A stretch of 64,000 nt of DNA. It comes from Acidobacteriota bacterium. GTDB taxonomy: Bacteria > Acidobacteriota > Vicinamibacteria > Vicinamibacterales > 2-12-FULL-66-21. A program made the position numbers and the translations under genes. The stretch lies in the NCBI GenBank assembly GCA_003223835.1, contig QHWR01000040.1:15134-79133 (forward strand), given 5' to 3'. Positions 30,501 through 64,000 of this stretch are shown one piece after another. The first letter of the stretch is position 1, and every line of letters starts with the position of its first letter. The notes beneath the pieces are model-generated. The model was given only the letters and a program-made list of their open reading frames with translations, had not been told where the DNA came from and searched no databases.

Positions 30501-33500
30501 CGCGACGGGCCAGGTGATCCGTCTCGTGCCGTCGGCGCCGCTGCTGCCGAACAATTACTACTACTACCAGGTGAGCACCGCGATCCGCGGAACGAACGGC
30601 CTGACGCCGCAGAACCAGGGTTCCTGGTACTTCTACACCGCGACGACGAGCGATACGATCGCGCCCGGCGTCCTGTCGGTGACGCCGCCTGCCGCCGCGA
30701 TCAACGTCGGCGACAACGCGCGCATTGTCGTGCGCTTCACCGAGCCGGTGAACACGCTCACGGTGAACGCGGCGACGCTGTCGGTAAGGGGCACGACGCC
30801 GATCGCCGGCGCGCTCAGCTTCGCCAACCAGAATCAGGACGTGTATCTGGAGCCGTTCACGCCGCTGCCCGACGGGCAGGTCCTGACGGTGGCGATCGAC
30901 GGCGTGACCGACGTCGCGGGGAATCCCGTCGCGGCGGTGACGTCGCAGTTCGCCGTCGGCGCCGGACCCGACGTGGCGGTGCCGGTGGTGCTCGCCATCA
31001 ATCCGGTGAACGGCCTCACGAACGTGCCGACGAACGTGGCGGTCTCGCTGCTCCTGAACGAGCCCATCGATCCGAGCTCGGTGACGCGCTCGAGCCTCCA
31101 GATCTACGACAACGTCGTCGGCCAGGTGAACGGCGCCTACACGGTGAGCAGCGACGGCCGCACGGTGACGTTCGTGCCGGGCGCGCCGCTCGGCGTGAGC
31201 CGCTCGCACAGCGTGTACTTCGCCAATCAGGGGATGACCGACCTCGCCGGCAATCTGGTGAACGGGTCGGGCTTCTCGAACTTCAGCTTCACGACGGGCG
31301 CGTCCGCGAACACGACGGCGCCGCAGGTGGTCGGGATCAGCCCGGCGGATCAGCTGACCGACGTCTCGCGCAACGTGCAGGTCGTCGTCGATCTCGATCG
31401 CCCGATCGACACGCTGACGGCGTCGCAGATCACGCTTGCGGCGAGCAGCGGAACGATCCCGGTCATCATGACGTTCGCCAACGGCGACCGCCGGATCACG
31501 CTGACGCCGATCGCGCCGCTGGCGGCCGCGACCGCCTACACCGTCACCGTGGGCGCGATTACGGATCTCAGCGGGATTCCGCTCGCCACGCCGGTGGTCA
31601 GTCATTTCACGACCACGACCGGCGTCGATCTGAACGGACCGCAGGTGAGCGTCGTCAGCCCGATCAACGGTGGAACGGGTGTGCCGACGAACGCGCTGAT
31701 TCAGCTCGGGTTCACCGAGCGCATGAATCCGCTGACCGTCAACGCCGGCACGTTCCGGCTCTATCCGCAGGCGACGGGGATTGTGATTGCCGGATCGTAC
31801 TCGGTCGCCGCCGACGGCCGGAGCGCGACGTTCACGCCGTCCGCGCCGCTGGCGCCGTCGACCGCCTACTACATCGACGTCAACGGCGTCGTGGATCTGA
31901 CCGGACAGGCCGCCTCGACGTTCACGAGCTTCACGACCGGGACAGCCGCGCAGGTCGCGCGGCCGACGGTCGTCACCGTCAGTCCGGCTGACGGCACGTC
32001 GGACGTGCCGCTCAACGCCAAGGTGTCCATGCTCGTGAGCGCGGCGATCAGCCCCGTGACGATCGGGAGCATGGCCGTCACGTTGTCGGCCAACGGCAGC
32101 AGCGTCGCCGGATCGATCTCGCTCAGCGCGGATCGCAGACAACTGACGCTGACGCCCGCCGCCGCGCTGGCGCCGAATACCACTTACACGGTGTTCGTCG
32201 GCGGCTTCGCGGACGTCGCCGGCAACCTCGTGCTGCCGTTCGGCAGCACGTTCACGACCGGGACCGCGGCGACCGACACCGGGCCGCTCGTCGTGAGCGC
32301 CTTCACCCCGGCGAACGGCACCCAGAACGTGCCGGTGAACAGCACCGTCGTCGTCCGGTTCAACAAGGCGGTCAGCCCGGTGACCGTCAACACGAACACG
32401 ATCGTGGTGTCGTACGCCGGCGTCAGCCACGTGGCGGGCGCCTACGCGGTCAGCGGCGGCACGGTGACGTTCACGCCGGCGAGCCCGTTCCCAGGCAATA
32501 CCAGCATCTCGGTGCAGGTGACGGGCGTCCAGGATCTGATCGGCAACGCGAACGGGTTCGCGTCCGCCTCCTTCGTGACGGCCGCCGTGGCGGATACGAC
32601 GCCGCCCGAGGTGGCGAGCGTGACGCCCGCCGACGGATCGGGCGACGTCGGCCTCAACGCGCAGGTCGTCGTGACGTTCTCCGAATCGCTGAATCCCGCG
32701 ACGGTGAGCAACAACACGTTCGCGTTGTTCGCCAACGGCATCCGCATCGGCAACATCGCGTCGGTGTCGGCCGACAACCGGACCGTCGTGCTGAGCGGCG
32801 GCACACTGCCGGCCGCGAGTCTCATCAGCCTCGTCATCACGAGCGCCGTTCGTGACCTCGCCGGGAACGCGCTCGCGGACTTCGTGAGCGGGTTCACCAC
32901 CGAGGATGCGCCCGACACGTCACGGCCGAGCATCGTGAGCCAGCGGCCGGCGAACGGCGCGAGCGGCGTGTCCGCCGCGAGCGGCGTCGTCCTGTTCGTC
33001 AGCGAGCCGCTCAACCCCGCAACCGTCGGGGCGGCGATCCACGTCTCGCAGAACGGCGTGCTCGTCGACGGGACGGCGCAGGTGACCGGCAACGGGCAGG
33101 TGATTCAGTTCCAGCCGGCCGTGGCGTGGGCGCCGAACGCGCTGATCCAGGTGTTCCTCGACGGCAACGCACAGGATCTGCAGGGCAACGCGCTCAACTC
33201 GTACCAAAGCTCGTTCCGGATCGCCGTCGATCCGCAGACCGCCGCGCCGGTCGCGACCGCGGTGAGCCCGGCGTACGGCTCGCAGAACGTGCCGCTGAAT
33301 CCGAGCATCGCCGTCGGTTACAACCAACCGCTCGATCCCGCGACGGTCAATACGTCCACGGTCAGCCTGAACGGCCCCGCGGGCAGGGTCAACGCGTCGG
33401 TCGGCCTCGATTCGACGGGAACGGTGATTCGGATCCTGCCCGTTGACGCGAGCAACAACCGGGTCGATCTGGCGCCCAACGCGTTCTACTACTACCAGAC

Positions 33501-41343: not shown

Positions 41344-41346
41344 TCA

Positions 41347-41449
41347 GTCCCTCGTCCCTAGTCCCTCGTCCCGAGTCCCTCGTCCCCAGTCCCTCGTCCC
41401 CAGTCCGGCGTCCTTGGGACCCGAGACGAGGGACTAGGGACTAGGGACT
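41347..41449. repeat. Heptad-armed hairpin: (GTCCCNN) x~10 facing (GGGACNN/TAGGGAC) x~4
   Basis: gtccctc gtcccta gtccctc gtcccga gtccctc gtcccca gtccctc gtcccca gtccggc gtccttg | gggaccc gagac gagggac tagggac tagggac. Fills the whole 90-bp spacer between the convergent TonB receptor and selA. The last four selA codons (AVPSP*) lie in the right arm. Confidence 0.9.
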
Positions 41450-42837
41450 GCCGAGTGTCGCAGCAACTCGCGTAGTTTCGCGTCGTCCTGCGGCAGTACC
41501 GTCCTGAGGTCCAGCACGACCCGATCGTTTTCGATCCTGGCGATGACCGGCGGGTCGAGCGCGCGCAGGCGCTGTTCGATTTGATCCGCGGTCAGGTCGT
41601 CGCGCGTCAACTCCAATAGCCGTGTCGGCAGCGCGGACCCCGGGGCGCTTCCGCCGCCGATCGTGGACTCGCCGTCGACGAGGCGCGTCCGCCACGGCGT
41701 CCCGCGAAGCGCCGACGCGAGCGCCTCGGCACGGCGGCCGATCTCCTCCGCCGTCAGCGCGATCATCCGCACCACCGGTACTTCCTCGCATCCACGCCCG
41801 ATGGCGTGCTGCTCGAGCGTCGCCTCGAGCGCCGCGTACGTCAGCTTGTCCACGCGGAACGCGCGCATCAGCGGGTGCAGGCGGATCCGATCGAGCGGCT
41901 CGCGACGCCCGGCGATGATCCCCGCCTGCGGTCCGCCGAGCAGCTTGTCGCCGCTGAACGTGACGACGTCCGCGCCGGCCTCGACGCTCGCGGACACGAT
42001 CGGCTCGTCTGCGAGCGGCGGAGGCGTGCGGTCGCGCTCCGGCCATCCCAGCCACCCGCTGCCGAGATCTTCGGCGACCGCGACGCCGAACCGGCGCCCG
42101 ATTGCGACGAGGTCCTCCAGCGACGGCCGTTCCGTGAACCCCGAGATCCGGAAGTTCGACGGGTGGACGCGCAGGATGAGCGCCGTGCGGCCGGTGATCG
42201 CCGCGGCGTAGTCCGCCGCGCGCGTCCGATTGGTGGTGCCGATCTCGCGCAGAATCGCGCCGGACTGCGCCATGACGTCGGGGACGCGGAACCCGCCGCC
42301 GATCTCGACCAGCTCGCCGCGCGAGATGATCACTTCCCGTCCCGCCGCGAGGGCCGCCAGCGTCAGCATCGCGGCCGCGGCGTTGTTGTTGACGACGACC
42401 GCGGCTTCGGCGCCGGTGAGCCGCTGGAGCAGGCGCTCGGCATGGGTGTCGCGGCGGCCGCGCGCGCCGGCCTCGAGGTCGTATTCGAGGTTCGTGTACC
42501 CGGCGGCGACGTCCGCGACGCGTGCGGCGGCCGCCGCGGAGAGCGGCGCGCGTCCGAGATTCGTGTGCACGATGACGCCCGTCGCGTTGATCACGCCGAC
42601 GAGCGACGGGCGCATCGCGGCGCGAAGCCGCGATTCCGCGCCGCGCTCGATCTCGAAAACCGCATCGTCCACGGCGATCGCCGCGAGGCCGCCGGAGGCG
42701 AGGCGATCGCGGAGGGCGGCGGTTTCGGCGCGCAGCGCGTCCACGAGCGCCGCGCGGCCGTAGCGCGCCTCGAGCGCGCGCATCGCGTCGCGCTGCCGCA
42801 GCTGTTCGATGGCGGGGATCACACGAAGGTCAGCCAT
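41434..42837 (-). CDS. selA: L-seryl-tRNA(Sec) selenium transferase
   Basis: Start taken at MADLRVIPAIEQLRQRDAM… (ATG 42837). Contains …INATGVIVHTNLGRAPL…, …NNNAAAAMLTLAALA… and …VVTFSGDKLLGGPQAGII… (PLP lysine), the SelA signature. The track's 5' extension to 42924 reads through a repeat element. Confidence 0.9.
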   Translation of the reverse strand: MADLRVIPAIEQLRQRDAMRALEARYGRAALVDALRAETAALRDRLASGGLAAIAVDDAVFEIERGAESRLRAAMRPSLVGVINATGVIVHTNLGRAPLSAAAAARVADVAAGYTNLEYDLEAGARGRRDTHAERLLQRLTGAEAAVVVNNNAAAAMLTLAALAAGREVIISRGELVEIGGGFRVPDVMAQSGAILREIGTTNRTRAADYAAAITGRTALILRVHPSNFRISGFTERPSLEDLVAIGRRFGVAVAEDLGSGWLGWPERDRTPPPLADEPIVSASVEAGADVVTFSGDKLLGGPQAGIIAGRREPLDRIRLHPLMRAFRVDKLTYAALEATLEQHAIGRGCEEVPVVRMIALTAEEIGRRAEALASALRGTPWRTRLVDGESTIGGGSAPGSALPTRLLELTRDDLTADQIEQRLRALDPPVIARIENDRVVLDLRTVLPQDDAKLRELLRHSAVPSP

Positions 42838-42850
42838 GAGAGATGCGCTA

Positions 42851-42939
42851 GAATGACGAATGCCGAATGTCGAATGCCGAACGTGAACCGAGTGCCGATT
42901 CAGATCTCTTTCGGCATTCGGCATTCAGCATTCGGCATT
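42851..42939. repeat. Heptad-armed hairpin: (GAATGNC) x4 facing (GNCATTC) x4
   Basis: Left arm gaatgac gaatgcc gaatgtc gaatgcc (42851..42878). Right arm ggcattc ggcattc agcattc ggcattg (42912..42939). Lies in the divergent spacer between selA and the 42953 gene. Confidence 0.9.
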
Positions 42940-43396: not shown

Positions 43397-43467
43397 CAGC
43401 TTCCAGCTGCCAGCTTCCAGCTTCCAGCTCGGAACCATGGAACCGTTGGCCGGGAGCTGGTAGCTGA
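43397..43467. repeat. Heptad-armed hairpin: (CAGCTNC) x5 facing GAGCTGG TAGCTGA
   Basis: Left arm cagcttc cagctgc cagcttc cagcttc cagctcg (43397..43431). Loop ggaaccatggaaccgttggccgg. Right arm gagctgg tagctga (43454..43467). Occupies the whole spacer from the stop at 43396 to ATG 43473. Confidence 0.9.
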
Positions 43468-43472
43468 AGACG

Positions 43473-44523: not shown

Positions 44524-46048
44524 GAAAATCCAGCAATATGCGCGCGATTTTGAGCGTCTCGGACAAGGCGGGGCTCGTCCCGTTCGCGCGTGCCCTCGCC
44601 GCCGCCGGCGTCGCCTTGATCTCGACCGGCGGCACCGCGAAGGCGCTGGCGGACGCCGGCTTGCCGGTGACGAACGTGTCGGACGTCACCGGTTTCCCCG
44701 AGATGATGGACGGCCGCGTCAAGACGCTGCATCCGAAGATCCACGGCGGCATCCTGGCGCGCCGCCATCGGCCCGACGATCTCGCCGCGATCGCGGCTCA
44801 AGGCATCGAGCCGGTGGATCTCGTGGTCGTGAACCTGTATCCGTTCGAGCGGTGCTGCGCGCCGCGGCGAAAAATTTCCGCGACGTCCTCGTCGTCGTGT
44901 ATCCCGCGGACTATCCGCGCGTGCTCGAAGAGCTGGCGCGGCCGGACGGGCCGTCGCTGGCATTCAGGTTCGAGCTGATGAAAAAGGCGTTCGCGCACAC
45001 GGCGCAGTTCGACAAGTTGATTCTCGATACGCTGAACACGATTCGGTGCTCGAACGGCGATTTCTCGCGGGGCGCTCCGCTCGAGAACCGCAGGCAGCTG
45101 CGGTACGGCGAGAACCCGCATCAGCAGGCGATCTGGCTGTGTACGACGGACGCCGCGGCCGAGTGGAAGATCCATCAGGGCAAGGAGCTGTCGTACACGA
45201 ATCTGCTCGACGTCGACGCCGCCGCCCGCATCGCGCTCGAGTTCACGGAGCCGGCGGCGGTTGTCATCAAACACACGAATCCATGCGGGACTGCGACGGG
45301 GTCGTCGATCGCCGACGCGTATGTGCGCGCGCGCGAGGCCGACCCGCTGTCCGCCTTCGGCGGGATCGTCGGGCTGAACCGGCCGGTTGACGAGGAAACG
45401 GCGCGGGCTATTGCGTCGACGTTCATCGAGGCGGTCATCGCCCCCGGAATCGACGAGGCCGCGCGCGGGATTCTCGCGGCCAAGACCAACATGCGCGTCC
45501 TGACGGCGAGCTTCGATCGCCTGCGCGACGACGAGCGATCGGCCAAGGACGGGCGATCGATTCTGGGCGGCTTCCTCGAGCAGGACAGGGATCAGGTCGT
45601 CGAGGCCCGCCTGCCCTGGCCACCGCCGCCGGGTGACGCAACCGCCGCAACGGCGGCGATTCGGGTGGTGACGAAGCGCCAGCCGACGCCGGAGGAGTGG
45701 ACCGCGTTGCGGTTTGCGTGGCGCGTGTGCGCGCACGTCAAATCCAACGCGGTGATCTTCACCGCGGCCGATCGAACGCTGGCGGTGGGCGCCGGTCAGA
45801 TGAGCCGTGTGGACGCGGTCAAGGTCGCGGTGACGAAGGCCGCGGGCCAGAACGTCTCGTTGAAAGGATCAGTCGCGGCGTCGGATGCGTTCTTCCCGTT
45901 CCGCGACGGCCTCGACGCGATCGCGGACGCCGGCGCGACCGCGGTCGTGCAGCCCGGCGGATCCGTGCGCGATCAGGAGGTGATTGCCGCGGCCGACGAG
46001 CGAGGGCTCGCCATGGTGTTCACAGGGCGCCGTCACTTCAGACACTGA
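44517..46048 (+). pseudogene. purH: Bifunctional AICAR transformylase / IMP cyclohydrolase, frame broken near 44851
   Basis: - N-terminal part: [37 protein letters not shown]…[18 protein letters not shown]…VVVNLYPFE (track 44517..).
- C-terminal part, in another frame: (V)[15 protein letters not shown]… to the end (track 44852..46048).
- Missing: the ~22 aa that normally separate NLYPF from LRAAAKN. Confidence 0.88.
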
Positions 46049-47697
46049 TGACGCGACGAGCGACGCTGACGGTCATCCTCGCGCTCGCCTCGATCCTCTT
46101 CTTCGTGGATCTCGGCGGCACCTCGATATGGGACGCGAACGAAGCGTTCTACGTCGAAACGCCGCGCGAGATGCTCGAGGCGCACGACCTCATCAACCCC
46201 ACGTTCGACTACGAGCCGCGCTTCAACAAGCCGGTGCTCAGCTACTGGGTGGTTGCGGCTTTCTACAAGCTGTTCGGCGTCTCCGTCGCCGTGCAGCGAA
46301 TCCCTATCGCCATCGGAGCGTTGATCATCGTCGCCTGCGCGTTCTTCCTCGCGCGTGCCGCCGCCGACGGGGGACTTGGGACGCGGGACGAGGGACGAGG
46401 GACGAGGGACGCGGCGTTGTGGGCCGCCGCCGGCCTCGCCGTTTCCCCCCGGCTGGTGATGTTCGCGCGCCGCATCTTCATCGACATCTGGATCACGGCG
46501 TTCATGTCGCTGACGCTGCTCTTCTTCGCGTTGAGCGAACGTCATCCGGAGAGGCGGCGGTTGTTCCTGATCCTGATGTACGTTGCCGCGGGGCTCGGGA
46601 CGCTGACGAAGGGCCCCGTCGCGATCGTGCTGCCCGCCCTCGCATTCCTCCTGTATCTGATCGTCCATGGGGAACTGCGTCGCCTTCGGTCGATGATGCT
46701 GCCGCTCGGCGTCGTCATCGTCTGCGCCGTCGTGGTGCCGTGGTATCTGGCGGTGTACCACCAGCACGGCTGGCCCTACATCAAGGCATTCTTCATCGGC
46801 GAGAACATCGGGCGCTACACGTCCGGCGTCGGCCTGCAGCAGGAGCGCGGTCTTCTGTTCTATCCGCCGATTATCCTCACCGACTCGTTGCCGCTGTCGT
46901 TTTTTCTGGTCGCCGCGGCGGCGTGGTGGTGGCGCGAGAGCCGGATCCAGACGCTCCTCTGGATCTGGATTGCCGTCATCGTGCTGTTCTTCTCGTTCTC
47001 GGCGAACAAGCAGGATCTGTACATCTACCCGATCGTGCCCGCGGTCGCCGCGCTCGCCGGTGCGTTCCTCTCGCGCGTTGAGGCGGATTCCTCGGGACCG
47101 TTCGCGTGGTGGGCGGCCGTCACGGCCGGCGTCGCCGGGATCTTCCTGGCGGCGGCCGGCGCCGGCGTGCTGTACGTGTTCGAGACGGCGGGCCGGGTGT
47201 ACGCGCTCAACGGCGCGATCGCCATCGGCGTCGTCGGCGTGTGCGGGGGTCTAATCGCGTTTGCGCTCGCCGTCGCGCGGAAGCCGCTGGCGTCGACGTT
47301 CACCCTGCTCATCCTGATGGTCGCGCTCGACTGGACGTTCGTGCTGCGCGTCTTGCCGGACTTCGAGCGCAACAAACCGGTCCCCGGGATCAGCGAGACG
47401 CTTCGCGCGCGCCTGCGTCCGGACGACGTCGTCGCCGTGTTTCACGAGGCGGTGCCGAGCCTCGTCTACTATCTGCGGCGGCACGTGGACATGTACATCG
47501 ACCCGCGCGCGTTCGTCGAGGCGATGTCGCAGCCACGGCGCGTCTACGGCGTGCTGACGCTCAGCGATTACGACGAGCTGCGCCCGCAGATCTCGAGGCC
47601 GACGTGCATCATCGATCGGCGGCCGACCTTCGCCGGAGCTGTTGCTCATTACGAACGATTGTGGCCGACGATAGGTTCGGGGTTCCTGAAACAGTGA
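46048..47697 (+). CDS. Glycosyltransferase family 39 (ArnT/PMT-like, undecaprenyl- or dolichyl-phosphate sugar dependent)
   Basis: ATG 46048 (TGATG overlap with the purH stop). MTRRATLTVILALASILFFVDLGGTSIWDANEAFYVETPREMLE…FNKPVLSYWVVAAFYKLFG…LGTLTKGPVAIVLPAL… is typical of GT39/PMT_2. Polytopic membrane protein. Confidence 0.8.
   Translation: MTRRATLTVILALASILFFVDLGGTSIWDANEAFYVETPREMLEAHDLINPTFDYEPRFNKPVLSYWVVAAFYKLFGVSVAVQRIPIAIGALIIVACAFFLARAAADGGLGTRDEGRGTRDAALWAAAGLAVSPRLVMFARRIFIDIWITAFMSLTLLFFALSERHPERRRLFLILMYVAAGLGTLTKGPVAIVLPALAFLLYLIVHGELRRLRSMMLPLGVVIVCAVVVPWYLAVYHQHGWPYIKAFFIGENIGRYTSGVGLQQERGLLFYPPIILTDSLPLSFFLVAAAAWWWRESRIQTLLWIWIAVIVLFFSFSANKQDLYIYPIVPAVAALAGAFLSRVEADSSGPFAWWAAVTAGVAGIFLAAAGAGVLYVFETAGRVYALNGAIAIGVVGVCGGLIAFALAVARKPLASTFTLLILMVALDWTFVLRVLPDFERNKPVPGISETLRARLRPDDVVAVFHEAVPSLVYYLRRHVDMYIDPRAFVEAMSQPRRVYGVLTLSDYDELRPQISRPTCIIDRRPTFAGAVAHYERLWPTIGSGFLKQ
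46371..46412 (+). repeat. In-frame (GGGACNN) x6 heptad array inside the GT39 coding sequence
   Basis: gggactt gggacgc gggacga gggacga gggacga gggacgc, 42 nt or 14 codons (GLGTRDEGRGTRDA), inserted in a loop after a TM helix. The core is the same as the right arm of the 41347 element. Confidence 0.85.
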
Positions 47698-52086: not shown

Positions 52087-53817
52087 ATGTCTGTCGCGCT
52101 GTTGTTCGTCGTTTCGCTGAGTTTTCCCGCCTCCGCCCCGAATCAGGCCGACCAGCCGACCGCGGCGTACTACTTCCTGCTGGGCAGAACGCTCGAAGGC
52201 AAAGGCAAGATCGACGACGCGATCGCCGCGCACCGCCAGGCGATCCAGCTCGATCCGAAGTCCGCCGAGCTGCACGCCGAACTGGCAGGCCTCTTCGCGC
52301 GGCAGGAGCGCGCGCCGGAGGCGTTCGACGAGGCGCGCGCGGCGCTCGACCTCGATCCGCAGAACGTCGAGGCGAATCGCATTCTGGGCACCGTGCTCGC
52401 GGCGTACGCGGACCAGCGGCGCGTGTTGAAGCCGGGCGACGATACGTCGACGTACATGCGGCGCGCGATCGGCGCGCTCGAAATCGCGCGGCGCGACGGC
52501 TCCGTCGATCTCAACACCGACCTCGCGCTCGCGCGTCTGTATCTGCAGGACCATGCCCCCGGGAAGGCCGCGCCGCTCCTCCGCCACATCCTCGACGATC
52601 AACCCGGCTTCGGCGAAGGCTATCTGCTGCTCGCGCAGGCGCAGGAGGAATCCGGTCATCCCGACGACGCGATCAATACGCTGAAAGCCGTCGTCGGCGA
52701 GGAGCCGACGTTCTATCGCGCCGTCGTCCGCCTCGCGGAGCTGTACGACGCGCACCGTCAATGGACGGAGGCGGCCGAGACGTGGTCGCAGGCGCAGAAG
52801 ATCAATCCGCGCAATCCCGACCTCGTGAGCCGCCGCATCACGGCGCTCATCAACAGCGGCAAGGCGGGGGACGCGCGCGCGGAATTGCAGATCGCGCTCA
52901 AGGCGCGGCCCGACGACCCGTCGCTCTTGTATCTCCTCGCGCAGGCGGAGCGCCAGGCGGGGGACTGGGACGCCGCCGAGGCGACGGCGCGTCAGCTCCA
53001 GAAGGCGGAGCCGAACGGCATCCGCGGACTTTACGTGCTGGCGCAGATTCTCGAGACGCGCAACCGTCACCAGGAGGCCGTCGCCCTGCTCCAGCCGGAG
53101 ATCGCGAAGCGCCGCGGCAACGCGGACGCGGGCTCCGGCGTCGCGCTGCTCCTCGGCACCGAGGGGCTCGCGCTGCAGGGACTGAAGAAGCATGACGAGG
53201 CCATCGCCGCGTTCAAGGAGGCGGCGGAGCTTGCGCCGGACGATCCGCTGCGGCAGGTCCTGCTGATCCAGAGCTACACCGAAGCGCGCCGGTTCAAGGA
53301 CGCGATCGCGGCGGCGGCCGCGGCGCAGAAGAGATTTCCTGACGACACGAGCGTCCTGTATCAACTCGGCGCCGCGTACGATCGCGGCGGGCAGCAGGTC
53401 GAAGCCGAGAAAACGTTCCGCGATCTGCTGCGGCACGACCCGCTCGACGCCAACGCGCTGAACTATCTCGGCTACATGTTCGCGGAGCGCGGCCGTGACC
53501 TCGACGAGGCCGTCGCGCTCATTCAGCGCGCGCTGAAAATCGATCCCGCCAACCCGTCCTATCTCGACAGCCTGGGCTGGGCGTACGTGCAGCAGGGGCA
53601 CCTCGATCTCGCCGATCAGCCCCTGACGGCGGCGGCGGATCGGCTGCCGAAGAACTCGGTCGTCCAGGATCATCTGGGCGACCTGCGTCAGAAGCAGCAT
53701 CGGCCCGCCGACGCGATCGCGGCGTGGCAGCGCGCGCTCGCCGGCGACGGCGAGGAGATCGACCGTGGCAAGATCGAGAAGAAGATAAAAGAGGCACAGG
53801 CGCTGCTGAGGAAATGA
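52087..53817 (+). CDS. Tetratricopeptide-repeat (TPR) protein, secreted
   Basis: Start MSVALLFVVSLSFPASAP (ATG 52087). Many TPR units (…AIAAHRQAIQLDPKSAELHAELAGLF…, …ALNYLGYMFAERGRDLDEAVALIQRALKIDPANPSYLDSLGWAY…). Occupies the position of the TPR gene that precedes lolB-ispE in many Gram-negatives. Confidence 0.85.
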   Translation: MSVALLFVVSLSFPASAPNQADQPTAAYYFLLGRTLEGKGKIDDAIAAHRQAIQLDPKSAELHAELAGLFARQERAPEAFDEARAALDLDPQNVEANRILGTVLAAYADQRRVLKPGDDTSTYMRRAIGALEIARRDGSVDLNTDLALARLYLQDHAPGKAAPLLRHILDDQPGFGEGYLLLAQAQEESGHPDDAINTLKAVVGEEPTFYRAVVRLAELYDAHRQWTEAAETWSQAQKINPRNPDLVSRRITALINSGKAGDARAELQIALKARPDDPSLLYLLAQAERQAGDWDAAEATARQLQKAEPNGIRGLYVLAQILETRNRHQEAVALLQPEIAKRRGNADAGSGVALLLGTEGLALQGLKKHDEAIAAFKEAAELAPDDPLRQVLLIQSYTEARRFKDAIAAAAAAQKRFPDDTSVLYQLGAAYDRGGQQVEAEKTFRDLLRHDPLDANALNYLGYMFAERGRDLDEAVALIQRALKIDPANPSYLDSLGWAYVQQGHLDLADQPLTAAADRLPKNSVVQDHLGDLRQKQHRPADAIAAWQRALAGDGEEIDRGKIEKKIKEAQALLRK

Positions 53818-54638
53818 AGGCAGGAGGCACAAGGCAGAAGGCAACCGCATCGGGATGGCTTGCGGCGTTCTGCCTTTTCCCTTTTGCCTTCTGCCTTTTT
53901 GCGTGCACGCCGAAGCCGCCTGCCCTTCCCGCTGGTGCCGCGTCGCCGTTTCCGGAATATCAACAGGCGTGGACCGAGGCGACGCGCGAGTGCGCCGGAG
54001 TCCAGACGTTGACGGCGTCGCTCGCGATGTCGGGGAAGGTCGCGAAGACAACGCTGCGCGGACGAATCGACGCCGGGTTCGCCGCGCCATCGAGCCTCAG
54101 GCTCGAAGCGGTCGCGCCGTTCGGCCGGCCGGTGTTCGTGCTGGTCGCCACCGGCGACGCCGGCACGCTGCTGCTCGAGCGCGACAACCGCGTGCTGCGC
54201 GGCGCGCGTCCGGCGGACATCGTCGAAGCGCTGGCGGGGGTGCCGCTCGGCGCCGCCGACCTCCGGGCGGTCGTGACCGGCTGCGGGCTGTGGGCCGCCG
54301 CGTCGCCGCACGAGGGGCGCCGGTACGCCGACGGATGGGCGGCGGTCGATCTCGATGACGGCACGGCATTCCTGCGGCAGGCGAACGCCCGCTGGCGGAT
54401 CGCCGCCGCTTCGTCGCCCCACATGACGGTGCGATACGATCTCGATCGCGACGGGCGTCCGTCCACGATTCGCATTTTCACCGATGCGTCCACGACCGCG
54501 GCCGACCTCACGCTGCGCGTCTCACAGGTCGACATCAACGTCACCCTCACTCCGCGAACGTTCACCATCGACGTCCCGCGTGACGCAGCGCCGATCACAC
54601 TCGACGAACTCAGGCGCGCCGGCCCGCTGGGACGCTGA
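53814..54638 (+). CDS. Outer-membrane lipoprotein, LolB-like by position (DUF4292/LolB-type)
   Basis: ATG 53814 (ATGA overlap with the TPR stop). N-terminus MKAGGTRQKATASGWLAAFCLFPFAFCLFAC has a lipobox-like LFAC. Followed directly by ispE. The family call rests mainly on synteny. Confidence 0.6.
   Translation: MKAGGTRQKATASGWLAAFCLFPFAFCLFACTPKPPALPAGAASPFPEYQQAWTEATRECAGVQTLTASLAMSGKVAKTTLRGRIDAGFAAPSSLRLEAVAPFGRPVFVLVATGDAGTLLLERDNRVLRGARPADIVEALAGVPLGAADLRAVVTGCGLWAAASPHEGRRYADGWAAVDLDDGTAFLRQANARWRIAAASSPHMTVRYDLDRDGRPSTIRIFTDASTTAADLTLRVSQVDINVTLTPRTFTIDVPRDAAPITLDELRRAGPLGR
53816..53898. repeat. Heptad-armed hairpin (NNAGGCA x4 / TGCCTNN x4) overlapping the lipoprotein signal peptide
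   Basis: Left arm aaggca ggaggca caaggca gaaggca (53816..53843). Right arm tgccttt tcccttt tgccttc tgccttt (53871..53898). The right arm encodes FCLFPFAFCLF. Confidence 0.88.
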
Positions 54639-56801: not shown

Positions 56802-57418
56802 ACACTGCAAGCGGGCGGCTGCGTGCCGCGGGCCGGATCCCGGCCGTCCTCTACGGCACGCACAAGGGGAAGGCCACCGAGATCGCGGTCGATCCGAAGG
56901 CGCTCCTGCGCATCCTGCACTCCGACTCCGGGGTCAACACGCTCATCGGGCTGAGCGTCGACGGATCGGCGACGCGCGTGCTCGTCAAGGAGTACCAGCT
57001 CGACCCGATCGATCACAAGCTGCTCCACGCGGACTTCTATCAGGTCGCGATGGACAAGGCGATCACCGTCACCGTGCCGATCGTGCTCAAAGGTGAACCG
57101 AAGGGCGCCAAGCAGCAGGGCGGGATCGTCGACTTCGTCAATCGTGAGATCGAGATCGAGTGTCTGCCCGGCGACATCCCCGAGCACGTCGACGTGGACA
57201 TCAGCGAGCTGATGCTGCACCAGGGCGTGCGCGTGCGCGACCTCGTCCAGGGCGTGAAGTGGACGGCGATCAGCGACCCCGACATGATGATCGTGCACGT
57301 CGTGACGCTGAAGGCGGAGGAGGAGCCGAAGCCGGCCGAGGCCGCCGCCGCCGCGCCGGCCGCGCCCGCCGAGCCCGAGGTGATCAAGAAGGGCAAGACG
57401 GAGAAAGAAGAAGAATAA
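56793..57418 (+). pseudogene. rplY: 50S ribosomal protein L25 / general stress protein Ctc, frame broken near 56812
   Basis: ATG 56793 gives MEATLQA. The L25 sequence then continues in another frame (…RLRAAGRIPAVLYGTHKGKATEIAVDPKALLRILHSDSGVNTLIGLSVDG…, the C-terminal part of track ORF 55772..57418). About 12 residues of the usual …R…GKG.ARRLR… segment are missing. Confidence 0.85.
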
Positions 57419-57426
57419 TTGGTGGA

Positions 57427-57456
57427 TTGGTGAAGTGGTGATCACCAACTCACCAA
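57427..57456. repeat. Near-perfect 30-nt palindrome built from TTGGTGA/TCACCAA repeats
   Basis: ttggtgaagtggtgatcaccaactcaccaa, with a further ttggtgga copy just upstream. Lies between the ctc stop (57418) and the pth ATG (57456). The centre GTGGTGATCACC recurs at 59506..59517. Confidence 0.85.
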
Positions 57457-58055
57457 TGAAGCTCGTTGTCGGCTTGGGCAATCCGGGCAGGAAGTACGAA
57501 GGGACGCGGCACAACGCGGGATTCGCGGTCATCGACGCGCTGGCCGCGCGTCACCACGTCGACTGGGAGGCGGCGCCGCGCGGGATCGAGGCGCTCGTCG
57601 CGCGCTGGCGGACCGCCGACGTCGTCTTCGCCAAGCCGCTGACGTTCATGAACAGCAGCGGCCCGGCGGTCGCCGCGCTGCTGCAGTTCTACAAGGTCGA
57701 CCCGGCGGAGCTGCTCGTCGTCGTCGACGAAGTGAACCTCGAGCTGGGGCGGCTGCGCACGCGCGCGAGCGGATCGGCCGGCGGCCACAACGGCCTGAAG
57801 TCGGTCGTCGCGGCGCTCGGGGGCGACGGGTTCGCGCGGATGCGCGTCGGCGTCGGGCGCGGCGACGCGAGGCGCGACCTCGCGGATCACGTGCTGGCGA
57901 GATTCGAGACGTCGGAGCGCGCGGTCGTCGACGAAACGATCGGGCGCGCCGCCGACGCGGTGGAGCTGTTCATCAACGAGGGCATCGTCCCCATGATGAA
58001 CCGGTACAACAGGAAAGACGACAGCGGGATCGACCCGACAGAATCGTCTCCTTGA
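57456..58055 (+). CDS. pth: Peptidyl-tRNA hydrolase
   Basis: [30 protein letters not shown]…[10 protein letters not shown]… is canonical Pth. Start taken at the internal ATG of track ORF 57435. Confidence 0.95.
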
Positions 58056-58880: not shown

Positions 58881-58964
58881 GACACGAAGACACGAAGGTA
58901 CGAAGGATACGAAGAAAACACATTTGGCTTCGTGTGCTTCGTTGGCTTCGTGATCTTCGTGATG
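58881..58964. repeat. Repeat-armed hairpin: (NNACGAAG) x4 facing (CTTCGTNN) x4
   Basis: gacacgaa gacacgaa ggtacgaa ggatacgaa gaaaacacatttg gcttcgtgt gcttcgttg gcttcgtgat cttcgtgat. Lies between rpsR and rplI. Confidence 0.9.
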
Positions 58965-58994
58965 AGACCGTGGTCCCGTGACAGGAAAATCATC

Positions 58995-59443: not shown

Positions 59444-59517
59444 CACCACAGAGCCAACAGAGAACACAGAGGCCGACTCAGTTTTCTGTGACCTCTGTTT
59501 CCTCTGTGGTGATCACC
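59444..59517. repeat. Repeat-armed hairpin: (NNNACAGAG) x3 facing (CTCTGTNNN) x3, ending in GGTGATCACC
   Basis: caccacagag ccaacagag aacacagag gccgactcagtttt ctgtgac ctctgtttc ctctgtggtgatcacc. Begins 34 nt after the rplI stop. Confidence 0.9.
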
Positions 59518-59608: not shown

Positions 59609-60967
59609 GTGCCCGACGTCGCTGTCTCCGACCGTACGCTGCCGCATTCGCTCGACGCGGAGAAGTCCGTGCTCGGCGCGATCCTGATCCACAACGAGGC
59701 GTTCAACCACGCCGCGGAGCTGATCGACTCGCGGGATTTCTTCCGCGACGCGCACCGCCGCATCTTCGAGAAGATGATCGTGCTCAGCGAGCGCGGCGAC
59801 GCGATCGATCTGATCACGCTGAAGGACGAACTGGCGCGGTCGGGCGAGCTGGACGAAGTCGGCGGGCCCGCCTACATCGCGTCGCTCGCCGACGGCGTGC
59901 CGCGCTCCGCCAACATCGAGCACTACGCGCGCATCGTCAAGGAGAAGTCCACCCTCCGGAACCTGATTTACTCCGCCAACAAGATCCTGACGACGGCGTA
60001 CGAGGCGGAGCAGGACGCGGACCTGATCCTGGACGAGGCGGAGAAATCCATCTTCGAGATCGCGGAGGACCGGATCCGCGAGGGGTTCGTGCCGCTGCGC
60101 GACCTCGTGCAGGGCAGCTTCGCCACGATCGAGAAGCTCCAGCAGCACAAGGGGCTGGTCACGGGCGTGCCGACGGGGTTCGCCGATCTCGACGAGATGA
60201 CCTCTGGGCTCCAGCGGTCGGACCTCATCCTCATCGCCGCGCGGCCGTCCATGGGAAAGACCAGCCTCGTGCTCAACATCGCGCAGCACGTCGGCGCGCA
60301 GACGGATATGACCGTCGGCTTCTTCAGCCTGGAGATGGCGAAGGAACAGCTCTTCATGCGGCTGCTGACGTCGGAGGCGCGGATCGACGCGCACCGGTTC
60401 CGCAGCGGCCACCTGAGCGAGAAGGATTACGGCCGCCTGTCCCACGCCCTCGGCACGCTCGCCGAGTCGCGCGTGTTCATCGACGACACGGCGTCGATCG
60501 GCGTGCTGGAAATGCGCGCAAAGGCGCGGCGGCTCAAGGCGGAGCACGGCCTGCACCTGCTGATCGTGGATTACATCCAGTTGATGCAGGGGCGCGGCCG
60601 GTTCGAGAACCGGCAGGCGGAGCTGGCCTCGATCTCGCGCTCGCTCAAGGGGCTCGCCAAGGAGCTGCACGTGCCGATCGTCGCGCTCTCGCAGCTCTCA
60701 CGCGCGCCCGAGACACGATCGGACCACCGGCCGCAGCTCTCCGATCTTCGCGAGTCGGGCGCTCTCGAGCAGGACGCCGACGTCGTCCTCTTCATCTTCC
60801 GCGAGGAGCAGTACCGCGACGACAACGGCCAGCCGAACCAGGCGGCCGAAGGGATCGCGGAGATCATCATCGGCAAGCAACGCAACGGCCCCACCGGTGT
60901 CGTCAAGCTCGCGTTCATCAAAGAGCACACGCGGTTCGAGAACCTCGCCCACGGCGCTGTCCAGTGA
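59609..60967 (+). CDS. dnaB: Replicative DNA helicase
   Basis: 452 aa with a GTG start. Contains …[17 protein letters not shown]…, …[17 protein letters not shown]… (Walker A), …[10 protein letters not shown]… and …[33 protein letters not shown]…. Confidence 0.96.
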
Positions 60968-62160
60968 TCCGGCCGACCGTCGCGCGCGTCGACCTTCAGG
61001 CCATCGAGTCGAATCTGCGCGCGATCGCCGCATTTCTTCTCGGTCCCCGGTCTCCGGTCGCCCCGCCTCCGCCGCCTGGCGGCGACGGCGAGGCCTCGCC
61101 AGAGCCCGCGCCGCATTCAACGCGGGCGGCGGCGGGTCCTCGAATCATCGGTGTCGTCAAGGCGAACGCCTACGGCCACGGCGCTCGGGAAGTCGGCCTC
61201 GCGCTCGAGCGCGCGGGGGCGGCCGTGCTCGCGTGCGCGGATATCGAGGAGGGGATCGCGCTGCGCGACGCCGGCGTCCGCGCCCCGATTCTGGTGTTCG
61301 GCGCGCTCGGCATCAGCGACCTCGACGGCCTCTTCACGCACACGCTGACGCCGACGATTTCCACGCCGTCCGCGGCGGCCGCGTTGCAGCAGGCCGCGGC
61401 ACGCCACGCCACGGTGCTCCGCTGTCATCTCAAGATCGACACGGGCATGAACCGCCTCGGCTTCCGGCACGACAACCTCGCGCGGACGATTCCCGAAGTC
61501 GCGTCCAGCCGCAACCTCGCGATCGACGCCGTCTACACGCACTTCGCGACCGCCGACGATCCCGACGGCGACATGTTCGCGGTCCAGCGCGAGCGCTTCG
61601 AGCGCGCGTGCGCGGAGGTCAGCGCGCTCGGGATTCGACCGGCGTCGCGTCACGCCGCGAACAGCGCCGCCCTCCTGCGCGACGAGCGGGTCTGGTACGA
61701 CTTCGTCCGCCCCGGACTGCTCCTCTACGGCATCGTCCCGCCGCCGCTCGCCTCGACGCTGCGGCTGCGACCCGCCCTGTCACTCCACAGCCGTATCGTC
61801 CATGTGAAAGGGATGCGGCCCGGCGAGGGCACGGGCTACGGGCTCAAGACCGTCGTCGATCGTCCGGCGACGATCGCCGTCGTGCCCGCGGGGTACGCCG
61901 ACGGCCTCGATCGCCGGCTCGCGGGCGCCGGCGCGATGCTGGTTCGCGGCCGCCGCGCCCCCATCGTCGGATCGGTGTGCATGGACATGACGACGATCGA
62001 CGTCACCGGGATGGATGTGTACCCGGGCGACGAGGTGGTGATTGTCGGCGAGCAGGACGGCGCGTCGATCGGCATGCGCGAGATGTCCGCCGCGATCGGC
62101 ACGATCCCGTACGAGCTGCTTTGCCGCGTCGGCACGAGGATTGAAAGGCTCTACGATTGA
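60964..62160 (+). CDS. alr: Alanine racemase (with a ~35-aa Pro/Gly/Ala-rich insertion near the N-terminus)
   Basis: GTG 60964 (GTGA overlap with dnaB). Contains …[14 protein letters not shown]… (PLP lysine), …[13 protein letters not shown]… and …GYADGL…[11 protein letters not shown]…. The insertion is [35 protein letters not shown] at about 61036..61140. Confidence 0.92.
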
Positions 62161-62652
62161 AGATTGGCGATTGGCGATTGGCGATTCACGAATTGACGAT
62201 TACAGGATTGCCGATTCACGGATTGACGAATACCGATTGCCGATTCACGAATTGACGATTACGGGATTGCCGGTTTACGGATTCACGAATACAGATTGCC
62301 GATTCACGAATTGACGATTACAGGATTGCCGGTTTACGGATTGACGAATTGAGGATTGCCGATTGACGGATTGCCGAGTGCGGATTGGCGGTTGCCAATC
62401 GTCAACACGCCAATCGTCAACACGCCAATCGTCAATGCCCCAATCGTCAATATGCCAATCGTCAATACGCCAATCGTCAATGCCCGAATCGTCAATGCCC
62501 GAATCGTCAATGACCCAATCGTCAATGACCCCAATCGTCAATTGCCCAATCGTCGATCCGTCAATCGTTAATCGCCAATCGTCGATCCGTCAATCGTTAA
62601 TCGCTAATCGACAATTCGTGAATCTTCAGTCTCCAATCGCCAATCGCCAATG
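62155..62652. repeat. ~490-bp palindromic tandem-repeat array (15-bp period; core GATTG/CAATC) filling the alr-radA spacer
   Basis: - Left arm (62155..62389): alternating 7/8-mers such as gattggc, gattcac, gaattgac, gattaca, ggattgcc…
- Dyad: gattggc-ggtt-gccaatc at 62383..62400.
- Right arm (62394..62650): CAATCGTCAANNNNN at a strict 15-bp period (starts 62396, 62411, 62426 … 62516).
- Outermost pairing: gattggcgattggcgatt (62162..) is complementary to aatcgccaatcgccaat (62633..).
- Overlaps: covers the alr stop and the radA ATG. Confidence 0.92.
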
Positions 62653-64000
62653 AAAGCGAAGATTGTCTACGTGTGCCAGGAATGCGGCGCGCAGGCGCCG
62701 AAATGGCTCGGACGCTGCGCGGACTGCGGCGCGTGGAACTCCCTCGTCGAGGAACGCCCGGTGCCCGTGGGGGCCGGGGCGGGCGCGGCGGCGGGAGCCG
62801 CGGCGGAGCGGTACGCACTGGCTGCCACATCGGGGCCGCGGCTGTACGCGGAAATTGACACTGTCGTCGCCGAGCGGCTGTCCACCGGCATCGGCGAGTT
62901 CGATCGCGTGCTCGGCGGCGGGGTCGTGCCCGGATCGCTGGTGTTGATCGGCGGCGAGCCCGGCATCGGGAAGTCGACGCTGCTCCTGCAGGCGGCCGCG
63001 CACTTCGCGCACGCGATCGGCCCGGTGCTCTACAGCTCCGGCGAGGAATCCGAGCACCAGATCAAATCGCGCGGCCAGCGGCTCGGCGTCGCCGCCGCTC
63101 CTCTTTATCTGCTCGCCGAAACGTGCCTCGAGCGGATCCTCGAGGAGATCGCGCGGCTGCGCCCCAGGTTCGTGATCGTGGACTCCGTGCAGACGGTGTT
63201 CTCGCTCAAGTTCCAGTCGGCGCCCGGCAGCGTCGGTCAGGTGCGCGAGGCCGCGACGCAGCTGCTCTTCGCGGCGAAGGGGCAGAACATCCCGACCTTC
63301 CTCGTCGGCCACGTCACGAAGGACGGCAGCCTCGCGGGTCCGAAAGTCCTCGAGCACATCGTGGACACGGTCCTCTATTTCGAAGGCGAGAAGCACCACT
63401 CGCACCGCGTCGTCCGCGCGGTCAAGAACCGGTTCGGCGCGATCAGCGAGCTGGGCGTCTTCGAGATGACGGGACAGGGGCTGCGCGCGGTGCCGAATCC
63501 GTCGCAGCTCTTTCTCGCCGAGCGTCCCGCGAACGCGCCTGGCTCCGCGGTGCTCTGCTGCGTCGAGGGATCGCGGCCGCTGCTCGTCGAGGTGCAGGCG
63601 CTCGTGAGCACGAGCAGCTACGGCAACGCGCGCCGGATGGCGAGCGGGCTCGATCAGAATCGGCTGTCGCTGCTGCTCGCCGTCCTCGAGAAGCGCGCGG
63701 GGCTGAACCTGATGGCGGAGGACGTGTTCGTCAACGTCGCCGGCGGCATGTCGATCGAGGAGCCCGCCGCGGACCTTGCGGTCGTCGCCGCCGTCGCGTC
63801 GAGCGTCCGCAACCGCCCGATCAAGCCGGGGACCGCCGTCTTCGGCGAGGTCGGGCTCGCCGGCGAGGTGCGCGGGACGACGCAGGCGTCGCTGAGGGTG
63901 AAAGAGGCGGGGCAGCTCGGGTTCACGCGCGTCGTGATGCCCGAGGCCAACATCGTCCCCGGCGAGGCGCCCGACGGGTGCGAGCTGGTCGGCGTCAGGA
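62650..64000 (+). CDS. radA: DNA repair protein RadA/Sms (3' end beyond the window)
   Basis: Absent from the track because it runs off the end. From ATG 62650: MKAKIVYVCQECGAQAPKWLGRCADCGAWNSL (zinc ribbon), …LIGGEPGIGKSTLLLQ… (Walker A), …HVTKDGSLAGPKVLEHIVDTVLYFEGE… and KNRFG. Confidence 0.94.
   Translation, partial: MKAKIVYVCQECGAQAPKWLGRCADCGAWNSLVEERPVPVGAGAGAAAGAAAERYALAATSGPRLYAEIDTVVAERLSTGIGEFDRVLGGGVVPGSLVLIGGEPGIGKSTLLLQAAAHFAHAIGPVLYSSGEESEHQIKSRGQRLGVAAAPLYLLAETCLERILEEIARLRPRFVIVDSVQTVFSLKFQSAPGSVGQVREAATQLLFAAKGQNIPTFLVGHVTKDGSLAGPKVLEHIVDTVLYFEGEKHHSHRVVRAVKNRFGAISELGVFEMTGQGLRAVPNPSQLFLAERPANAPGSAVLCCVEGSRPLLVEVQALVSTSSYGNARRMASGLDQNRLSLLLAVLEKRAGLNLMAEDVFVNVAGGMSIEEPAADLAVVAAVASSVRNRPIKPGTAVFGEVGLAGEVRGTTQASLRVKEAGQLGFTRVVMPEANIVPGEAPDGCELVGVR

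Follow-up and report, generated by a model that had tools for sequence, protein, structure and literature searches.

Inverted heptamer arrays as a putative hairpin cassette between alr and radA in a Vicinamibacterales genome

The spacer between alr and radA in an uncultured soil bacterium of the order Vicinamibacterales (Acidobacteriota) consists, over its whole 489 nt, of short repeats. The window analysed here is a 64,000-nt stretch of a metagenome assembly of this organism (sample CRIT18-1, SAMN08902887), in which the array, gene edges included, occupies positions 62155–62652. Very probably, the array is a non-coding hairpin cassette of the short tandemly repeated repetitive (STRR) type, made of two inverted arrays of degenerate 7–8-nt units that fill a spacer of the dnaB-alr-radA cluster. 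The best explanation overall, which we consider probable without regarding it as secure, is a cargo-less and hyper-expanded STRR-type cassette that has grown by slippage and is tolerated in the dnaB-alr-radA operon, presumably because its stem leaves 3 nt between the alr stop and the radA start. Several lineages carry a small PF05635 gene within such a cassette, and on sequence grounds the window copy is best read as the form lacking this cargo. Taken alone, the array is an extreme, not a categorically new, example of an intergenic heptamer-repeat hairpin. An earlier note, based on the letters only, had described a palindrome of tandem repeats, and this structural description is right. Its label of ‘unexplained’ is only partly right: Rfam is empty here, but the literature describes the class (STRRs, Xanthomonas, Geobacter).

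Anatomy and predicted fold

The units of the array have the cores GATTG and CAATC, with periods of 7, 8, 15, 30 and 59 found by Tandem Repeats Finder (TRF). The left arm (62155–62393, forward strand) is a run of degenerate 7–8-mers (GATTGNC, GATTCAC and GAATACN) with matches to GATTGNCGATT and higher-order periods of 15, 30 and 59 bp, which TRF resolves into 14.4 copies (71% matches), 6.8 copies (82%) and 3.7 copies (88%), respectively. The unit of about 60 bp that the earlier note had seen twice in this arm is thus real, but is present ~3.7 times. The right arm (62394–62652, forward strand) repeats CAATCGTCAA followed by N5 at a period of 15 bp (17.4 copies by TRF over 62394–62651). With at most one mismatch, nine copies of CAATCGTCAA follow at exact 15-bp steps (starts 62396, 62411 ... 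62516), which bears out the strict periodicity claimed for this arm, and further copies start at 62532, 62547, 62562, 62576 and 62591, giving about 14 altogether; 3′ of these, the arm decays to 7-mers (CAATCGC) that run into the radA ATG. At the same threshold, 27 matches to CAATCGTCAA occur in the window (3.2 ± 1.7 in shuffles), 24 of them inside the array. For GATTGNCGATT, the count is 37 matches (4.0 ± 1.9 expected by chance). The arms are balanced in length (239 and 259 nt), and their units carry many distinguishing variants, i.e. they are not identical copies.

The repeats reach into both flanking genes, as had been claimed. The first unit coincides with the last alr codons, GAT TGA (TGA at 62158–62160), and the 3′ end of the array enters the radA start (CCAATG; ATG at 62650–62652). 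The whole array has a GC content of 0.48–0.51, compared with 0.66–0.75 in the flanks. The co-directional coding sequences (CDSs) follow in the order dnaB, alr, radA: alr, for alanine racemase (60964–62160, forward strand), matches Pfam Ala_racemase_N (2.3e-61) and Ala_racemase_C (6.1e-42), and radA (MKAKIVYVCQECG...; 62650–63999, forward strand), with 450 stop-free codons, matches Zn_ribbon_LapB, ATPase/KaiC, AAA_25, ChlI and Lon_C.

The two arms are complementary over 47 nt at 85% (62156–62202 with 62605–62651) and over 86 nt at 72%. At the base of the predicted stem, 62163–62181, which starts 3 nt past the alr stop, is the exact reverse complement of 62633–62651; this perfect 19-bp helix slightly exceeds the 17–18 nt proposed earlier. 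Its 3′ strand includes the A and U of the radA AUG together with 17 nt upstream, and a reading of the 20 nt 5′ of the ATG reveals no GGAG Shine-Dalgarno-like motif. As RNA, the array is predicted to form one hairpin comprising 197 base pairs at a minimum free energy (MFE) of −222.9 kcal/mol, compared with −153.3 ± 7.0 for dinucleotide shuffles (z −9.9). Folding as DNA gives −129.2 kcal/mol (z −9.5). That the palindrome can fold into a long imperfect hairpin or cruciform, as the earlier note had suggested, is supported by these predictions. The innermost pair of the MFE structure places the apex at 62396–62401, within the dyad anticipated at 62383–62400. The imperfect stem of ~200 bp is interrupted by a mismatch or bulge every 2–13 bp, and its outer pairs enclose both the alr UGA and the radA AUG. 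Within the right-arm 15-mer, core positions 2–11 are (nearly) invariant and have pairing probabilities of 0.57–0.89, whereas the variable positions 12–15 reach 0.08–0.56.

Several familiar elements were searched for and set aside. A scan of 61900–62900 against Rfam 15 returned only a chance match to mir-358 (18.7 bits against a gathering score of 65). Scans of the array region for sigma-70 promoters and, on either strand, for intrinsic terminators found nothing; the stem is followed by ATGAAAGCG and not by a U-tract. A CRISPR array is rejected, in agreement with the earlier note, since a 10-nt core followed by 5 related bases does not constitute a repeat-spacer architecture; the neighbours are dnaB, alr and radA. 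Repetitive extragenic palindromes (REPs), bacterial interspersed mosaic elements (BIMEs) and transposable elements of the miniature inverted-repeat type (MITEs) were discarded because, within the window, the core motifs are essentially confined to the alr-radA array. A replication origin, an iteron array and a LexA box were rejected likewise: no similarity to DnaA or LexA boxes was detected, and no rep gene lies nearby.

At least eight such hairpins occur in the window, and none exceeds this array in size. A low-threshold repeat scan finds seven more in intergenic positions, each with arms of tandem 7–8-mers and a unit of its own (z −3.9 to −6.9); only ATTGGTG, at 57417–57458, resembles the GATTGGC of the alr-radA array. 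Gene calling by the GC content of third codon positions (GC3) is crude and serves for orientation only, and gene geometry near the hairpins was read by eye. Five of the seven, like the alr-radA array, lie between co-directional genes, in the L25-pth-S6-S18-L9-dnaB-alr-radA cluster or in similar tandem pairs, and typically extend from stop to start. The (CAGCTTC)n hairpin at 43397–43470 runs from a stop codon to the next start (−37.2 kcal/mol, z −3.9). The (GAAGGCA)n ... (TGCCTTY)n hairpin at 53816–53899 starts at a stop codon (−47.2 kcal/mol, z −5.6) and looks like a terminator because TTTTT follows. The (ATTGGTG)n hairpin at 57417–57458 spans the interval from the L25 gene's TAA to the pth ATG, gene names being taken from a second scaffold, L001 (−19.7 kcal/mol, z −4.3). 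The (ACGAAGR)n ... (CTTCGTG)n hairpin at 58881–58965 separates the S18 and L9 genes (−48.0 kcal/mol, z −6.9), and the (ACAGAGR)n ... (CTCTGTK)n hairpin at 59445–59512 separates the L9 gene from dnaB (−39.9 kcal/mol, z −6.4). The remaining two are (AGTCCCT/CGTCCCT)n ... (GGGACGA/GGGACTA)n at 41344–41450, between convergent genes (RNA −66.1 kcal/mol, z −6.8), and (GAATGNC)n ... (GGCATTC)n at 42851–42939, between divergent gene starts (−52.4 kcal/mol, z −6.6).

Two further repeats lie within apparent coding regions. About 6.6 copies of GGGACGA-type heptamers, related to the GGGACGA/GGGACTA units of the hairpin 5 kb away at 41344–41450, occur at 46366–46411 in an apparent long open reading frame (ORF; 45697–47697). 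In an ORF of ~4436 codons with high GC3 (21571–34878), a 66-bp tandem repeat at 22299–22424 encodes Asp/Gly-rich repeats.

Orthologous spacers and four-helix-bundle genes

The order alr-radA is conserved across the Vicinamibacterales. Loci compared here are cited by label (L001 and so on). Alr of the window is 56–75% identical to the proteins of metagenome-assembled genomes (MAGs) of Vicinamibacterales and Vicinamibacteria (Acidobacteriota) and about 35–45% identical to those of other phyla. The closest Alr relatives in a metagenome scan are only 75–81% identical, so that no strain-level comparison of copy number is available. At one extreme the two genes overlap, at the other the spacer measures about 535 nt; roughly one third of the spacers are <40 nt or overlapping. 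Most of the longer ones are hairpins of tandem 7–8-mers whose unit differs between genomes, so that the comparison of related genomes called for by the earlier note shows the kind of array recurring at this site, mostly with other repeat units. Examples are CAGCTTC in L002, GGTTTTA in L140, GGTAATC in L014 and L016, TTGGTGAG in L015, CCCAACT in L019 and L022, CACGGAGA in L023, CAGCTCT in L037 and GGTCATCT in L038. L004, an independent MAG, has a homologous GATTG-type array (259 nt, z −10.6), and L084 and L094 have it in part. Among 55 spacers of 40–700 nt, the strongest period is 7, 8, 14, 15 or 16 in 48, and folding is better than that of shuffles at z < −3 in 29 and at z < −2 in 36. The dominant stem usually begins 0–10 nt past the alr stop and ends 0–15 nt short of the radA start. 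Arm pairing is frequent but not obligatory, since some spacers hold direct arrays only. In L006 (11116–11631), an Acidobacteriota MAG on a 4.07-Mb contig, the 511-nt alr-radA spacer comprises direct non-complementary arrays of GGGATTC/GGGACTC, (GGGGATC)~14, (CCGGAAG/CTGGAAG)~35 and CTGATAG (three copies). Heptamer expansion therefore needs no complementary partner.

Loci of Vicinamibacterales contain 35.3 arrays of 7/8-mers per 100 kb, compared with 9.8 in other phyla (3.6-fold), and 6.8 inverted array pairs per 100 kb, compared with 1.3 (5-fold); the commonest period is 7. Arrays of period 7/8 are also dense (3.8–6.2 per 10 kb) in L078, L080 and L081 (Chloroflexota), L042 (Anaerolineae) and L045 (Binatia), and L081 contains five inverted pairs. 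A literature search combining ‘Vicinamibacter’ with ‘tandem repeat’ found no papers.

In several relatives, the hairpin encloses a gene. A small gene of the PF05635/TIGR02436 family, which comprises four-helix-bundle proteins, the proteins of 23S rRNA intervening sequences (IVSs) and the Avd protein of diversity-generating retroelements (DGRs), lies within the alr-radA hairpin of L024 (11149–11684), L143 (1436–1959) and L027 (11122–12648), with E values of 1e-12 to 3e-19. L095 retains a relic of the PF05635 GANLEE motif in the same position, and in L092 (150–730) and L087 (2630–3230), the gene sits in a heptamer hairpin of the neighbouring dnaB-alr spacer. A homologue search yields 86 proteins, many on contigs of ~1 kb. 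The four that were located (P0046, P0049, P0050 and P0059) all lie antisense between alr and radA, with AGAAGNN arrays on both sides that extend to the stop and the start; arrays likewise enclose three homologues that are more distant and lie in unrelated contexts. By label, the loci with a bracketed gene of this family are L024, L143, L027, L092, L087, L162–L169, L170, L172, L174 and L175–L182.

The flanks of these genes were compared by an inverted-repeat score from local alignment. For 11 of 12 PF05635 genes, this score lies above every one of the 300 position-matched controls; the exception is L027, whose arrays lie further out. Duplex-folding energy was dropped as a test of flank complementarity because GC-rich coding controls score lower energies than the AT-richer arrays. 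Plasmid-borne members of the family are dominated by Nostoc and other cyanobacteria. Eight plasmid genes were examined (from Nostoc, Anabaena, Gloeocapsa, Planktothrix, Chlorohelix of the Chloroflexota, Treponema and Chondrinema of the Bacteroidota), and all have period-7 arrays on both sides, inverted, with almost none elsewhere in the 3.3-kb loci. Overall, each of the 20 PF05635 genes examined, from five phyla, is bracketed by inverted tandem-heptamer arrays, often between operon neighbours such as alr/radA, dnaB/alr, cas2/cas1, DUF1156/HEPN, RND adaptor/permease and drmD/pglX.

Some of these loci have features of their own. In L179 (1310–1990, Chlorohelix plasmid), L182 (1218–2010, Planktothrix plasmid) and L027 (12403–12640), the PF05635 gene is flanked by direct duplicates of a hairpin-containing spacer, in the layout [array...inverted array]-gene-[array...inverted array]; the duplicated segment measures ~110 nt in L179, compared with 122 nt in L027. 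The pattern resembles a target-spacer duplication produced by insertion. L178 (Gloeocapsa plasmid) and L179 share a TTTTAGA/TCTAAAA cassette and the order DUF1156, four-helix-bundle gene, Swt1-HEPN, a likeness between a cyanobacterium and a Chloroflexota phototroph which suggests that the entire operon, cassette included, has moved horizontally. In L180 (1125–1934, plasmid pTS1 of Treponema saccharophilum), an array of ~290 bp with ~41 heptamers (RTGAAAG / GCGGAAAG) lies upstream of the four-helix-bundle gene, and complementary CTCTCCG arrays lie on both sides. Arrays of the size seen in the window are thus present in an organism that has been cultured and whose sequence is finished.

A GGGAATC array of X. 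campestris abuts XCC0516 (PMC4692102, supplementary table), a member of the PF05635 protein family (PMC3936711). A phmmer search of PDB sequences for XCC0516 (PDB 2GSC) matched only 2RLD. Searches of the literature that combined PF05635 or ‘four helix bundle protein’ with repeats returned nothing on flanking arrays, and the link between heptamer hairpins and this family appears to be new as far as the searchable literature goes. It is tempting to propose, as a conjecture less likely to hold than to fail, that free-standing PF05635/TIGR02436 genes are the cargo of an unrecognised, cross-phylum class of hairpin cassettes with tandem-heptamer (STRR) stems, which would settle within operons where a stop meets the next start and, extending the idea, in the loops of RNase P RNA, 23S rRNA and other structured RNAs; solo hairpins would then be cargo-less derivatives or landing pads. 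If true, cyanobacterial STRRs, Xanthomonas GGGAATC pairs, Geobacter paired repeats and rRNA intervening sequences would have a common origin, and an orphan four-helix-bundle family would gain a genomic lifestyle. For the alr-radA junction itself, the loci form a natural series, from overlapping genes through short hairpins and hairpins of 200–500 bp to hairpins that carry a gene.

Proposed mechanism and competing explanations

How such an insert could persist within an operon is addressed by a coupling or processing mechanism that we advance only tentatively. Each arm would gain and lose length on its own by replication slippage, since homogenisation follows a 59-bp unit in the left arm and a 15-bp unit in the right. 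The arms may stay complementary through selection for pairing, through template switching at the quasi-palindrome, or both. The array would be co-transcribed with alr and radA, and the RNA stem of ~200 bp would loop the insert out of the operon, leaving the alr UGA 3 nt from the perfect 19-bp helix that holds the radA AUG. On reaching the alr stop, a terminating ribosome would melt this basal helix and free the radA start, so that the coupling which relatives with spacers of 0–30 nt have directly may be preserved. Alternatively or in addition, RNase III may cut the long stem, as it does with the intervening sequences of 23S rRNA. The juxtaposition of stop and start by the stem makes this mechanism directly testable.

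Several observations weigh against this reading. Every functional step of the mechanism is inferred, and the stem is only 72–85% complementary. Among the 55 related spacers, 19 do not fold better than shuffles at z < −2, and L006, L005, L084 and L093 contain direct arrays alone, with nothing complementary to pair with. Hairpins built in the same way lie between convergent (41344–41450) and divergent (42851–42939) genes, where stop-to-start coupling cannot apply. The window contains no PF05635 gene by tblastn and profile search, and its array would be tied to the cargo-bearing cassettes by shared position and architecture only. The source is a metagenome assembly, in which the copy number may be wrong, and Rehm et al. 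found no regulatory role for the arrays of Xanthomonas (PMC4692102).

The main rival, to which we leave a minor yet appreciable share of the probability, regards the array as a functionless mutational by-product: heptamers slip easily at the replicative polymerase and expand in spacers that tolerate them, and the inversion would go back to an older, small hairpin in whose two arms slippage began. This would fit a unit that differs in nearly every genome, same-site spacers of 0 to about 535 nt, arms homogenised independently, the existence of direct-only arrays (e.g. L006 and L093), the absence of any function found for the Xanthomonas arrays (PMC4692102) and the finding, as relayed by later papers, that heptamers are the most over-represented long simple sequence repeat (SSR) in many bacteria, for which slippage was proposed (Mrazek 2007, via PMC4679880 and PMC4692102). 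Slippage alone, however, does not lead one to expect a tight association with one gene family. Nor does it readily account for complementarity regenerated with new units in many lineages (the 29 of 55 spacers with z < −3), for arms of balanced length, for 15-mer positions that are invariant where they are paired, or for stems that run consistently from stop to start. An architecture that is kept while the sequence changes is the type of evidence needed to part structural selection from slippage noise. The same core conservation could instead reflect a binding platform, iteron-like or for a regulator, in which the 10-bp core TTGACGATTG/CAATCGTCAA recurs every 15 bp in both orientations; the protein bound might be the four-helix-bundle protein or one of cold-shock type, which would occupy single strands at one heptamer each. 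The (nearly) invariant 10-nt core of the right arm next to its variable 5-nt filler is in keeping with this possibility, as are the Geobacter paired repeats annotated as putative sites of global regulators (PMC2700814) and CspB, which, according to the discussion in PMC4679880, binds heptamer repeats with one protein per unit. Pairing explains the conserved core equally well, no regulator gene is adjacent, and no single sequence-specific protein can serve all arrays because each locus and genome has its own heptamer, which makes a binding array improbable.

Hardly more credible is a hairpin-only, ‘I-shaped’ terminator or attenuator that would separate alr from radA or set their ratio. The predicted hairpin in the nascent RNA is very stable, its sister at 53816–53899 has a run of T after it, and for STRR hairpins a role in pausing or termination has been suggested (PMC2670836). 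Against this, the alr-radA stem has no T-run after it on either strand, no promoter-like site for radA was detected downstream of or inside the array, the radA AUG lies inside the stem, and the overlapping genes or 0–30-nt spacers of relatives imply co-transcription. A chimeric or over-expanded repeat from short-read metagenome assembly, the concern raised by the earlier note, is very improbable for the class of array, though the concern stands for the exact length. The window derives from a metagenome scaffold, and many metagenome contigs end just past alr or in arrays (L090, L096, L083, L092 and L113). The sole independent copy, L001, an ENA metagenome scaffold apparently from the same sample, is base-for-base identical over the array, and the exact copy number lacks independent confirmation because L001 probably shares the same reads; this scaffold has a run of N (7390–7399), a gap inside radA, where the window is continuous. 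On the other side stand the many variants that distinguish the units and the homologous array of the independent L004. Furthermore, arrays of 170–535 bp occupy the same site on contigs of 0.3–4 Mb in other MAGs (L006, L007, L024, L032 and L037), which, from their size, are inferred to be long-read assemblies; the class is thus not a short-read artefact. The earlier note had held that the lack of any similar array elsewhere, together with read-level heterogeneity, would point to an artefact; seven smaller hairpins in the window and the arrays in the spacers of relatives show that such arrays do exist. Finally, a repetitive small protein is scarcely conceivable. An ORF of 96 aa is present (62363–62653), a 15-bp period preserves its frame, and its TGA overlaps the radA start (ATGA). 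It has no family match in NCBIfam, and the ATGA overlap is a consequence of the Met-Lys with which RadA conservedly begins. The array has a GC content of about 0.49, compared with a gene GC3 of 0.8–0.95 in the host genome, and since units and periods differ in relatives (mostly 7, which is not a multiple of 3), no protein is conserved. What relatives keep is architecture and not sequence, in line with the earlier note, which had seen no credible coding capacity.

The STRR-type cassette, grown by slippage and tolerated at a stop-to-start junction, thus remains the preferred reading. In practical terms, arrays of this kind break short-read assemblies and can pass for CRISPR-like or artefactual repeats. 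Among the metagenome contigs L082–L131, many end 3–130 nt past alr, some of them within a heptamer array (GAATTCA x4 in L090, GGGTAATC x3 in L096).

Comparison with known systems

STRRs were described in 1990. In filamentous cyanobacteria, STRR arrays of 7-bp units form hairpins between cistrons, e.g. hupS-hupL, for which roles in transcript stability or translational coupling have been proposed (PMC2670836), and STRRs are reported to lengthen a helix of RNase P RNA (Vioque 1997, as cited elsewhere). The alr-radA array shares with them tandem, head-to-tail units of ~7 nt, the intercistronic location and inverted arrays that form a stem, and the present analysis finds heptamer arrays flanking the four-helix-bundle genes of Nostoc, Anabaena and Planktothrix. 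It differs in its occurrence in an acidobacterial genome of high GC content, in a unit that, within the 64-kb window, is locus-specific where STRRs use few genome-wide units (STRR1-3), in its several-fold larger size (490 bp with a stem of ~200 bp) and in the 15- to 59-bp higher-order structure of its arms.

Paired heptamer arrays are also known from other bacteria. Xanthomonas campestris and X. axonopodis each contain about 186 GGGAATC arrays, of which 70–75 are convergent inverted pairs capable of forming stem-loops (Rehm et al. 2015, PMC4692102). These arrays, typically of 4 units, are transcribed and occur between the same gene pairs in both species, with variable length and sequence (PMC4692102). 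The GGGAATC arrays of Xanthomonas and the GGGGAYT arrays of Nostoc resemble the alr-radA array in their heptamer period, strong intergenic bias and inverted pairing. Their units, however, are G-rich and G-quadruplex-forming, one unit being dominant per genome, whereas GATTGNC and CAATCGT contain no tracts of three or more G. In Geobacter metallireducens, dozens of paired tandem repeats, with three to five units of 7–9 nt, have their matching set on the opposite strand at a variable distance (PMC2700814). Tandem units on one strand facing a matching set on the other are common to both systems, but a few consensus units recur at many loci in Geobacter, whereas in the Vicinamibacterales window the unit changes with each locus.

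The intervening sequences of 23S rRNA offer a further parallel. There, too, an insert is looped out by a long stem of inverted ends, the loop in some cases holding a four-helix-bundle ORF, and the host RNA tolerates the insert as the stem joins the flanks; in the alr-radA array, the predicted outer pairs would bring stop and start together in the same manner, and relatives of the window carry the same ORF family. The host, however, is an mRNA spacer and not an rRNA helix, and the window copy has no ORF. The association with PF05635, the most interesting lead of this analysis, may link STRRs, rRNA intervening sequences and the Avd-like family.

The closest functional analogy is provided by the REP/BIME elements of enterobacteria, imperfect palindromes in intercistronic regions and 3′-UTRs (untranslated regions) that fold in the mRNA and modulate stability and expression of the flanking cistrons. 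These elements form one conserved family of 20–40 nt spread by RAYT transposases and are neither tandem heptamers nor locus-specific. Collectively, the class of heptamer hairpins is already known, and the alr-radA array differs from its known members in phylum, in a unit that is locus-specific within the window, in the absence of G-tracts and in a size that is several-fold larger.

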